Assembly: GCF_011045215.1 (NCBI RefSeq)
Contig: NZ_CP049201.1
DNA from: Escherichia coli
GTDB lineage: Bacteria; Pseudomonadota; Gammaproteobacteria; Enterobacterales; Enterobacteriaceae
Strand: one strand, 5' to 3'
DNA: 64,000 nucleotides
Part shown: positions 58,976-63,205 of the stretch, piece by piece
Position numbering within the stretch: position 1 is the stretch's first letter
Layout: each line of letters opens with the position of its first letter
The notes under the pieces: generated by a model
What the model was told of the DNA's origin: nothing
The model's input: the letters and a program-made list of their open reading frames with translations, nothing else
Databases searched by the model: none
Program-made: the position numbers and the translations under genes

Positions 58976-59261
58976 TACCGTTGTCTCTCGTCCAGGTTTA
59001 CTCCTGATAGAAAGTCATCGGCACTTGACGGTAATTACTTATGACCAAATACCTCTTTGCGTCACATTTTTACAACAATTATTGCAGAGAAAATTAATGC
59101 TATTGGAATGAAGAGAGTAACGAATGGCTAAACCGAATGACGAAAAATTCTGGAAAACAGCACGCAATTTCGTGAAGTGATTATTTTCGTCCCTAAGGAA
59201 ACCTCATAGGATGCCTGCGGGTGCCTGAGACTTTCTGTTTTCAGGCTAACCGGGAATCAGA

Positions 59262-59306
59262 AAGACGAAGGCCCCGACCGATATTTCTATCAACCGAGGC
59301 CAACGA

Positions 59307-59317
<11 letters not shown>
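59262..59317 (-). ncRNA. sokB: Antisense RNA SokB (antitoxin of the hokB type I TA locus), approximate
   Basis: Placed by the canonical hok/sok layout: antisense to the mokB leader and start. Coordinates from recalled K-12 spacing, not an independent motif. Confidence 0.45.
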
Positions 59318-59514
<197 letters not shown>

Positions 59515-59929: not shown

Positions 59930-59993
59930 CTTCCGATGTAGACCCGTATTCTTCGCCTGTACCACGGGTCGGTTTTAGTACAGGCGTTTTCTT
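59930..59993 (+). ncRNA. rydC: Hfq-dependent small RNA RydC
   Basis: cttccgatgtagacccgtattcttcgcctgtaccacgggtcggttttagtacaggcgttttctt matches the recalled RydC sequence; convergent with cybB as in K-12. Confidence 0.7.
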
Positions 59994-60003
59994 TAAATAT
60001 CCT

Positions 60004-60534
60004 TCAGGAACGTTTACGCGGCATCATGCGTAGAAGTGTGTTGTCCTTCCAGAAATAGTGGTGTGCCAGTGCAACCGCAGCGTGCAAACCGATGACAAAA
60101 TATCCCAGATTCGCCAGCGTTTCATGCCACGACTTTAAGCTATCTACCCGTTCGAAATTGGCCTCTGAAGCGTAAGGCATCGTCAAACCAAACGCAAACC
60201 ACGGGTTGCCCAGGTTATACATCATCACCAAACCAATCACTGGCAGCGCAATAAACAGGAGATAAATCACCAAATGTCCCAAATGCGCCAGTCCCGTCAT
60301 CATCGGTTTCGGCTTAGGTATAATCGGCGGGGTTGGGTATTTCAGTCTTAACAAAAGACGAACCACCATCAGCACGAGAATTGAGATGCCACAGGAAACA
60401 TGAATCATGTTGATGAGCGGCCGATCGCTACGTGGGAAGAAACCCCGAAACTCCATTGCGCAATACGCTGCGATAACCAGCAAAAAGACCAGCCAGTGAA
60501 TGCTGATTTGTAACCTTGAGTATTTATTTTCCAT
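60004..60534 (-). CDS. cybB: Cytochrome b561 CybB (176 aa)
   Basis: MENKYSRLQISIHWLVFLLVIAAYCAMEFRGFFP; conserved His ligands. Confidence 0.9.
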   Translation of the reverse strand: MENKYSRLQISIHWLVFLLVIAAYCAMEFRGFFPRSDRPLINMIHVSCGISILVLMVVRLLLRLKYPTPPIIPKPKPMMTGLAHLGHLVIYLLFIALPVIGLVMMYNLGNPWFAFGLTMPYASEANFERVDSLKSWHETLANLGYFVIGLHAAVALAHHYFWKDNTLLRMMPRKRS

Positions 60535-60722
60535 AACATTTCCTGCTTTAACATAATTTTCCGTTAACATAACGGGCTTTTCTCAAAATTTCATTAAATA
60601 TTGTTCACCCGTTTTCAGTACGTTACGTTTCACTGTAAGAATGGAGATTGCCCATCCCACAATCCTGGGCTAAGCCTGGAAAGGATCAATTTTCATCCGA
60701 ACGTTCCTGACAGGAGAAAACC

Positions 60723-61724
60723 ATGAGTAAAGTTGGTATTAACGGTTTTGGTCGTATCGGTCGACTGGTGTTGCGTCGATTACTTGAAGTCAAAAGCAAC
60801 ATAGACGTTGTCGCTATTAATGATCTTACTTCCCCAAAAATTCTCGCCTATCTGCTGAAACATGATTCAAACTATGGTCCGTTCCCCTGGAGCGTTGATT
60901 TTACGGAAGATTCACTTATCGTTGATGGGAAAAGTATCGCGGTTTACGCCGAAAAAGAGGCTAAAAATATTCCGTGGAAAGCGAAAGGTGCAGAAATCAT
61001 TGTCGAATGTACTGGCTTTTATACCTCCGCCGATAAATCGCAGGCGCATCTTGATGCTGGTGCGAAGAAGGTGTTGATTTCCGCTCCTGCCGGTGAAATG
61101 AAAACCATCGTTTATAACGTTAATGACGACACTCTGGATGGCAACGATACCATTGTTTCCGTGGCGTCATGCACCACTAACTGCCTTGCGCCGATGGCCA
61201 AAGCCTTGCATGACAGTTTCGGGATAGAAGTCGGCACGATGACGACCATTCATGCCTATACTGGCACCCAGTCACTGGTGGATGGCCCGCGTGGTAAAGA
61301 TTTACGTGCTTCACGCGCCGCGGCAGAAAATATCATTCCCCACACTACGGGCGCGGCAAAAGCCATTGGTCTGGTGATCCCGGAACTGAGCGGCAAACTG
61401 AAAGGTCATGCGCAACGCGTGCCGGTGAAAACAGGTTCGGTCACTGAACTGGTATCGATTCTCGGAAAAAAAGTGACTGCCGAAGAGGTGAATAACGCAC
61501 TTAAACAAGCAACCACCAATAACGAGTCATTTGGTTATACCGATGAAGAAATAGTCTCTTCCGATATCATTGGCAGCCATTTCGGTTCGGTGTTTGATGC
61601 CACGCAAACGGAAATTACCGCCGTGGGCGATTTACAACTGGTGAAAACGGTCGCCTGGTACGATAACGAATATGGCTTCGTCACGCAGCTTATTCGCACC
61701 CTCGAAAAATTCGCTAAACTCTGA
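60723..61724 (+). CDS. gapC: Glyceraldehyde-3-phosphate dehydrogenase GapC, apparently intact (333 aa)
   Basis: Rossmann [10 protein letters not shown] and catalytic [10 protein letters not shown] motifs in one uninterrupted frame. Confidence 0.88.
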
Positions 61725-61731
61725 CGCGCAC

Positions 61732-61760
61732 AGGCGGAGGAAAAAACCTCCGCCTCTTTC
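61732..61760. terminator. Bidirectional hairpin terminator between gapC and aldA
   Basis: aggcggagg-aaaaaac-ctccgcct followed by a T-rich run. Confidence 0.6.
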
Positions 61761-61765
61761 ACTCA

Positions 61766-63205
61766 TCAAGACTGTAAATAAACCACCTGGGTCTGCAGAT
61801 ATTCATGCAGGCCATGTTTACCATCTGCGCCGCCAATACCGGATTTACGCCATCCGGCGTGGAAGCCTTGCATAGCTTCGAAGTTTTCACGGTTGATGTA
61901 AGTTTCACCAAACTTCAGCCCTTTAATGGCTTTCATCGCGACGTTCAGATTTTGGGTATAGATTGATGAGGTCAGGCCGTAATCACTGTCATTAGCCATT
62001 GAGATAGCATCTTCCAGCGTGTCAAATGCGACAACTGGCAGCACCGGGCCAAAGGTTTCCTCATGCATAATCGACATTTCCTGGCGAACATCCAGCAGCA
62101 ATGTCGGCGGATAATAATATCCTTTCCCCTCTACCGCTTTGCCACCCAACGCCACTCTCGCCCCTTCTTCTACTGCGCGCGCCACTTTTTGCTCGACCCT
62201 TTCCAGCGCCGCGGCGTTAATCAACGGCCCCATCGCAATGTCGTTGCGTTCAGCGGGGTTACCAAATTGAACCGCCTGCATCGCTTCACCCAGCCGATTG
62301 ACGAACTGATCATAAATGCCTTTCTGTACATAAACACGTTCTGCACAGTTACACACTTGCCCACTATTAATGACGCGTGAATCAACGATGGCTTTGACTG
62401 CCAGTTCAAGATCGGCATCGTCCATTACGATAGCTGGTGCTTTACCACCCAATTCCAGACACACTTTAGTGATGTTTTTCGCCGCAGTCGCCATGATCTT
62501 CTCACCTGCAGAGACGCTGCCTGTCATACTGACCATTGCGACCTTTGGGTTACCCGCCAGTTCTTGCCCAACGGTTTCACCACGCCCCAGAACAAGGTTA
62601 AACACGCCGCGCGGAAGGCCTATTTCATCGACGATTTTGGCGAATGCAATCGCATTGTTTGGCGTAAATTCACTGGGTTTAATGACGATGGTATTACCGG
62701 TCAAAAGAGCGGGAGCCATTTTGCGGGCAATGAGGAAGAACGGGAAGTTCCACGGCAGAATGCCGGTAGTCACGCCAAGTGCACGTTTAAACAGAAGAAT
62801 ATTTTCTCCTGGACGATCGCTTTGAATAATCTCGCCCTCGTAACGCCGTGCCCACTCCGCCATGTAATCGATATAGTCCGCAGTAAAAGCCACTTCGACT
62901 TCAGCCAGCTGCTGGATCTTGCCCCCTTCTTCAACAATCAGCGCACTGATTTCACTGGCGCGTTCGCGGATCCCGGCGGAGATTTTGCGCAACCAACTGG
63001 CGCGTTCAATGGCAGGCAACGCTTCCCATTCTGGTTGTGCACGTTCTGCTGCATCGATTGCCTTACGGGCATCCTCGGCCTGACCATCGGGAATGCGGGA
63101 AATGACAGCCTCTGTAGCAGGGTTTACCACATCAATCCATGCGTCTCCACGCCAGGTAACAAACTGTCCATCAATATACATAGGATGTTGAACGGGTACT
63201 GACAT
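61766..63205 (-). CDS. aldA: Lactaldehyde dehydrogenase AldA (479 aa)
   Basis: MSVPVQHPMYIDGQFVTWRGDAWIDVVNPATE; ALDH Cys motif GQVCNCAERV. Confidence 0.92.
   Translation of the reverse strand: MSVPVQHPMYIDGQFVTWRGDAWIDVVNPATEAVISRIPDGQAEDARKAIDAAERAQPEWEALPAIERASWLRKISAGIRERASEISALIVEEGGKIQQLAEVEVAFTADYIDYMAEWARRYEGEIIQSDRPGENILLFKRALGVTTGILPWNFPFFLIARKMAPALLTGNTIVIKPSEFTPNNAIAFAKIVDEIGLPRGVFNLVLGRGETVGQELAGNPKVAMVSMTGSVSAGEKIMATAAKNITKVCLELGGKAPAIVMDDADLELAVKAIVDSRVINSGQVCNCAERVYVQKGIYDQFVNRLGEAMQAVQFGNPAERNDIAMGPLINAAALERVEQKVARAVEEGARVALGGKAVEGKGYYYPPTLLLDVRQEMSIMHEETFGPVLPVVAFDTLEDAISMANDSDYGLTSSIYTQNLNVAMKAIKGLKFGETYINRENFEAMQGFHAGWRKSGIGGADGKHGLHEYLQTQVVYLQS

Follow-up and report, generated by a model that had tools for sequence, protein, structure and literature searches.

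Based on earlier work, an intact gapC and its reading as the gene of a second GAPDH are already known in Escherichia coli, and the copy described here is an ordinary gene in its common state. The source cited in PMC10614358 for the description of gapC is Hidalgo et al. 1996 (PMID 9019141), and UniProt P58072, the GapC entry of O157:H7, is cited there as well. According to the accounts of Espinosa-Urgel and Kolter (1998) given in PMC2949598 and PMC1796617, environmental isolates had an intact gapC and laboratory strains a truncated one, and the gene was expressed preferentially in fresh water. The gapC-1/-2 transcripts of K-12 derivatives are rpoS-dependent (PMC2759082). A urine qPCR also relies on the gene to recognize the species E. 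coli and detected it in 98.8% of the samples that were positive in culture (PMC10614358). Two other papers (PMC5610209 and PMC3080795) deal with plant GAPC or merely list a K-12 gapC deletion strain.

The product has been studied in vitro under the name EcGAPDH1, in a form that carries Glu at position 104. This enzyme has a Km for G3P of 0.73 mM and a kcat of 224,926 per min at 50 °C and pH 10; its activity is abolished in the C150A mutant and is lowered about 8000-fold in H177A, and its complexes with NAD, phosphate, G3P and the thioacyl intermediate have been described (PMC8615399). A search of the PDB with the protein studied here recovered the E. coli GAPDH entries 7C5F, 7C5H, 7C5G and others, the native sequence of which is identical to it at 332 of 333 residues.

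The stretch of E. coli DNA analysed here (64,000 nucleotides, hereafter the window) contains gapC as one uninterrupted plus-strand ORF of 333 aa, from ATG to TGA, both in the list of ORFs and by direct reading of the sequence (Table 1). The order cybB(-), gapC(+), aldA(-) is the same in the window, K-12, the baboon isolate PapM-32-1 and 12 further intact alleles that were sampled. The gapC DNA of PapM-32-1, where the gene is annotated as 'gap' (WP_000048653.1), is 100% identical to that of the window. The GC content of gapC is equal to the average of the whole window (47.8%), so that its composition shows no sign of recent transfer. As listed, the cybB ORF has 188 aa and begins at an upstream ATG at 60570, and the RefSeq start lies 12 codons later (60534, 176 aa); the longer ORF would cut the spacer between cybB and gapC to 152 bp.

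Table 1. Features of the gapC region, in positions of the 64,000-nucleotide window
Feature	Position	Strand	Remarks
cybB (cytochrome b561 / superoxide oxidase)	60004..60534	-	Divergent, left of gapC; K-12 and PapM-32-1 annotation
cybB-gapC intergenic region, 188 bp	60535..60722	+	Expected to hold divergent promoters
Shine-Dalgarno AGGAG	60712..60716	+	6 nt before the gapC ATG; direct reading
gapC CDS	60723..61724	+	333 codons and TGA; intact type I NAD-dependent GAPDH
Codon 39	60837..60839	+	AAA (Lys) in the window; TAA nonsense in K-12
Codon 104	61032..61034	+	GAT (Asp) in the window; minority allele
Catalytic Cys150 codon TGC	61170..61172	+	SCTTNC motif, context VASCTTNCL
Catalytic His177 codon CAT	61251..61253	+	Context TTIHAYT
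A7 homopolymer, gene nt 744-750	61466..61472	+	A6 in K-12, giving a -1 frameshift
GC-rich hairpin, 9 bp stem, A6 loop	61732..61755		Between the convergent gapC and aldA
aldA (aldehyde dehydrogenase A)	61766..63205	-	Convergent, right of gapC; 479-aa ORF and annotation

The first-pass annotation of this DNA, made without database searches, had described gapC as apparently intact and had named a frameshift hidden from simple reading as one finding that would overturn the call. Such a frameshift was sought by careful alignment and is absent. The window protein aligns without gaps to PDB 7C5F over 333 of 333 residues, the sole substitution being Asp104 for Glu104, its DNA aligns to 12 RefSeq-annotated intact alleles without any internal indel, and a family profile is matched at full length; a hidden frameshift is excluded by these gapless alignments. 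The apparent integrity might still be artefactual if two frameshifts compensated each other or the start were wrong, and the A7 run is indeed a known slippage site; beyond this run nothing pointing to an artefact was found, and the same gapless alignments and full-length profile match make this explanation hardly credible. We therefore take gapC of the window to be intact.

The protein belongs to the type I GAPDH family. It scores 446.4 bits against TIGR01534 (the NCBIfam equivalog model for type I GAPDH; curated cut-off 367.2), and its residues 3-325 cover positions 1-330 of the 330 in the model. The two-domain architecture of GAPDH is present, with the N-terminal NAD-binding Rossmann domain (Pfam Gp_dh_N) at residues 3-102 (123 bits) and the C-terminal catalytic domain (Gp_dh_C) at residues 155-313 (195 bits). 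The GxGxxG NAD loop is found as G8-F-G10-R-I-G13, followed by D34, an acidic residue favouring NAD over NADP. All of the NAD- and phosphate-binding residues named in PMC8615399 (R11, I12, D34, K78, S120, N315, S149, T151, T209, T180, T182 and R232) are present, so that the NAD loop, the acidic residue and the phosphate sites (Ps and new Pi) of a type I GAPDH are all in place. Cys150 and His177 are invariant in the 13 intact alleles compared. By analogy with EcGAPDH1, GapC would use these two residues for thioacyl catalysis, and Asp34 and the GxGxxG loop to bind NAD.

Since E. coli already possesses, in Epd, a diverged GAPDH paralog of different function, and since the NCBIfam models for Epd and for ArsJ-associated GAPDH were also matched, GapC could be imagined as a homolog that acts on another substrate, such as the erythrose-4-phosphate used by Epd/GapB, or that has a non-phosphorylating or arsenate-linked role. 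The scores speak against this. Both Epd profiles lie far under their cut-offs (NF010058, 279.4 bits against 539; TIGR01532, 275.6 against 530.55), which indicates that GapC is not an Epd; the ArsJ-associated model reaches 306 bits against 450, and the cut-off of the GAPDH-I model alone is exceeded. Neither the ORFs of the window nor the PapM-32-1 annotation show an arsJ gene next to gapC, and the 332/333-identical protein has measured kinetics with D-G3P as well as crystal structures with G3P and the thioacyl intermediate (PMC8615399). Epd-like and ArsJ-linked functions were rejected on the basis of these profile scores and the G3P kinetics, and the whole explanation appears most improbable. 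GapC is a genuine, distinct and catalytically competent GAPDH, with presumed activity in the exact Asp104 form and a putative role in the cell. The second functional GAPDH that the first-pass annotation had proposed as a possibility is thus supported in vitro, by a crystallised 332/333-identical enzyme that oxidises G3P and in which Cys150 and His177 are essential.

That K-12 gapC is a pseudogene had been stated in the first-pass annotation, and this is borne out. In MG1655 the locus (b4493, formerly gapC_1/gapC_2) is annotated in NC_000913.3 as a pseudogene of 1001 bp, and alignment with the window, the check that had been proposed, reveals two disabling lesions in K-12 and none in the window: the nonsense codon K39* and the deletion of one base in the A7 run. 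The other differences between the two genes consist of R18G, D104E and 12 synonymous changes; including short flanks, the alignment contains 17 differences (16 substitutions and one indel) over 1041 columns. Both the position between cybB and aldA and the near-identical nucleotide sequence place the window gene in the ortholog group of b4493. At codon 104, K-12, PDB 7C5F and the 12 other intact alleles sampled all have GAG (Glu).

The distribution of the locus was examined in 5426 complete E. coli genomes with a query of 1201 bases. In 5417 genomes it was recognized at an identity of at least 90%, and in 5407 with a coverage of at least 80%; five matches lay on plasmid-typed records, and a few genomes had two copies. 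Individual alleles were counted with short queries, designed so that every 28-base megablast seed spans the lesion. The 48-mer for the K-12 A6 frameshift allele matched 1050 of the 5426 genomes and the 55-mer for the K-12 TAA stop allele matched 1155, so that the K-12 lesions exist in about 19-21% of the complete genomes, whereas the Asp104 GAT allele of the window (55-mer) exists in only 85 (1.6%). A 47-mer specific for the intact A7 run gave zero matches, although the window and PapM-32-1 carry this sequence, likely because low-complexity masking of A7 by BLAST leaves flanks too short for a 28-base seed. The intact fraction is accordingly an estimate, obtained from the total locus count minus the K-12 alleles, plus sampling, and is not a direct count. 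For the sampling, 12 other alleles were drawn across the range of identity (down to 95.3%), including those of O157:H7, W and O104:H4, and all 12 were annotated as intact genes of 1002 bp. Intact gapC is the majority and common state in E. coli.

The hosts and sources of the K-12 alleles are diverse and include human, pig, dog, chicken, cattle, wild tapir, kangaroo, bullfrog and housefly, in addition to surface water, seawater, sediment and laboratory derivatives of K-12. In strains A27 (tapir, Venezuela) and W409 (chicken, China), gapC is annotated as 'frameshifted; internal stop' and carries exactly the K-12 lesions together with R18G. Because the same two lesions occur in about one-fifth of the complete genomes, many of which are fresh natural isolates, the dead gapC of K-12 is the allele of a natural lineage and not a product of laboratory decay. 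To speak of gapC as a gene in which laboratory strains 'accumulate mutations' is not the best description. The loss of the gene was probably a single event in a large natural lineage to which K-12 belongs, and the excess of TAA carriers (1155) over A6 carriers (1050) suggests that the K39* stop arose before the A6 deletion. Because about one-fifth of sequenced E. coli have no working gapC, the gene is dispensable at least in the K-12-like lineage. An independent loss was found in strain SCPM-O-B-7615 (L016 2624-4801), in which IS1A separates a 198-bp 5' remnant of gapC from a truncated aldA; gapC has lost its 3' part by deletion, and aldA its end. The same strain has an extra Hok-family toxin gene beside its hokB/sokB locus (L016 1116-1232).

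These frequencies also bear on the proposal of the first-pass annotation that an intact gapC marks the strain. This is true only weakly: intactness is the majority state and excludes nothing but the K-12-like lineage. The Asp104 allele and the 100% match of the locus to PapM-32-1 are more discriminating as strain markers.

Taken together, the window very probably contains an intact gapC, orthologous to b4493, that encodes an NAD-dependent phosphorylating type I GAPDH, whereas K-12 and a related natural lineage carry a dead allele. The integrity of the gene, its family, catalytic residues and orthology, the frequencies of its alleles and the purifying selection come from the present analysis; for the activity and the structure of the nearly identical protein, and for expression outside the host, this reading draws on the literature cited above.

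An intact frame may nevertheless belong to a silent gene, cryptic and without current function, in which a lesion is still to come. Such decay would agree with the point lesions in 1050-1155 genomes and with the IS1-associated truncation in one sampled strain. The 13 intact alleles tell against it: their mean dS is 0.111 and their mean dN 0.0043, giving a dN/dS of 0.039 over a diverse set, 74 of the 84 polymorphic sites fall on the third base of a codon, and only 11 residues of GapC vary, none of them catalytic. Intact gapC is under strong purifying selection, which again supports a functional second GAPDH. This situation is different from that of the dead K-12 allele, which is separated by five changes from strain W, the nearest intact relative in the sample; three of these changes alter the protein (R18G, the stop and the frameshift). 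One intact allele, that of HH194M (L007, from a migratory bird), has His207 replaced by Gln in a segment of 11 residues; codon 207 is near the loop of residues 208-215 that the structural study discusses, and since GapA has Ser at this position the replacement is probably tolerated.

The flanking sequence bears on silence from both sides. Upstream, the sequence between cybB and gapC shows 98% conservation over 12 strains including K-12, the AGGAG Shine-Dalgarno sequence is invariant in 12 aligned E. coli alleles, again with K-12 included, and the window differs from K-12 by four substitutions in 206 aligned bases; this conservation speaks against a silent gene. On the other hand, no clear promoter was detected. 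A consensus scan for promoters and terminators gave no more sites than in shuffled sequence and no convincing sigma-70 promoter, the lone sigma-70-like match on the plus strand being weak (TTTCCA-18-CATAAT at 60528-60557). Expression of gapC has nevertheless been reported (PMC2759082, and the work related in PMC2949598), and a silent or decaying gene therefore seems very unlikely. Downstream, the hairpin at 61732-61755 has a folding energy of -18.3 kcal/mol (z = -4.5 against shuffles) and is probably a terminator shared by gapC and aldA; it received no call in the consensus terminator scan because its T tract is weak. Under the preferred reading of a functional gene, GapC would be expressed in the strain of the window as a conditional second GAPDH.

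Several other elements were recognized in the window. A hokB/sokB type I toxin-antitoxin locus lies at 59219-59514, with an Rfam 'sok' match at 59219-59370 (+; 109.7 bits) and the HokB ORF at 59365-59514 (+; 49 aa). The small RNA RydC (Rfam RF00505, 92.5 bits) is at 59930-59993 (+), immediately past the 3' end of cybB and on the other strand; K-12 has the same arrangement. Positions 1-25000 form a variable region next to narZ/narH/narU, with PAAR-like, VgrG (T6SS tip) and leucine-rich-repeat (EspR1-like) effector genes; this region was covered to at least 80% in only 211 of the 5426 genomes, and parts of it recur, the median number of places in a genome being 11. No genome in the complete-genome collection matches the window throughout: the gapC locus agrees fully (100%) with PapM-32-1, while for positions 25001-50000 the best match, with 98.8% identity, is another strain. 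This suggests that the window is a recombination mosaic or comes from an unsampled strain.

Beyond correct annotation the importance of these results is small, and K-12 is atypical at the gapC locus. The population counts set right a frequent interpretation of the older papers, because the K-12 lesions are shared by over a thousand isolates. A wider and rather doubtful idea is that, in the large majority of E. coli with an intact gapC, GapC may sustain glycolysis or gluconeogenesis without GapA under some conditions, such as at low temperature, in stationary phase or outside the host, and that the gapA dependence of K-12 is specific to a lineage in which gapC was lost in nature. If this were true, strict gapA dependence would be a property of the lineage with K39* and the frameshift, about 20% of the complete genomes, and the loss of gapC would not have come from laboratory domestication, as was earlier suggested, wild-animal isolates being included among the carriers. 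Metabolic models and essentiality calls derived from K-12 assume a single glycolytic GAPDH, and they may fail for the other E. coli, roughly 80%, in which an active second enzyme is encoded and kept under strong purifying selection.

Among known systems, K-12 b4493 is the same locus, between aldA and cybB, with a conserved upstream region and Shine-Dalgarno sequence, but is disabled by TAA at codon 39 and by the A6 run, whereas the window copy is intact; the O157:H7 strain sampled has gapC at the same chromosomal position as the window. EcGAPDH1 (PDB 7C5F, 7C5H etc.) agrees with GapC in length, in the catalytic and ligand-binding residues and in 332 of 333 positions, and differs from it by one conservative substitution, Glu104 there and Asp104 here. 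Below the E. coli entries, the PDB chains 6IQM, 8HMN, 7WWW and 5J9G score 463-482 bits against GapC. They are followed by 3K73 ('GAPDH 1', from MRSA according to PMC8615399) and 4QX6, which are among the nearest solved structures after these (about 410-414 bits) and, coming from other organisms, are much less similar to GapC than the E. coli entries; the enzyme of Bacillus stearothermophilus (1GD1) scores about 306 bits. Within E. coli, Epd/GapB (erythrose-4-phosphate dehydrogenase) is a paralog of the GAPDH superfamily, and GapC falls far short of the Epd cut-off. GapA (b1779), the housekeeping glycolytic GAPDH, shares with GapC the fold family, the SCTTNC/His pair and the NAD-dependent phosphorylating chemistry, but is only 46% identical, lies at a separate locus and is matched by models of the NF011954/PRK15425 type, against which GapC scores 298.7 bits with a cut-off of 662.
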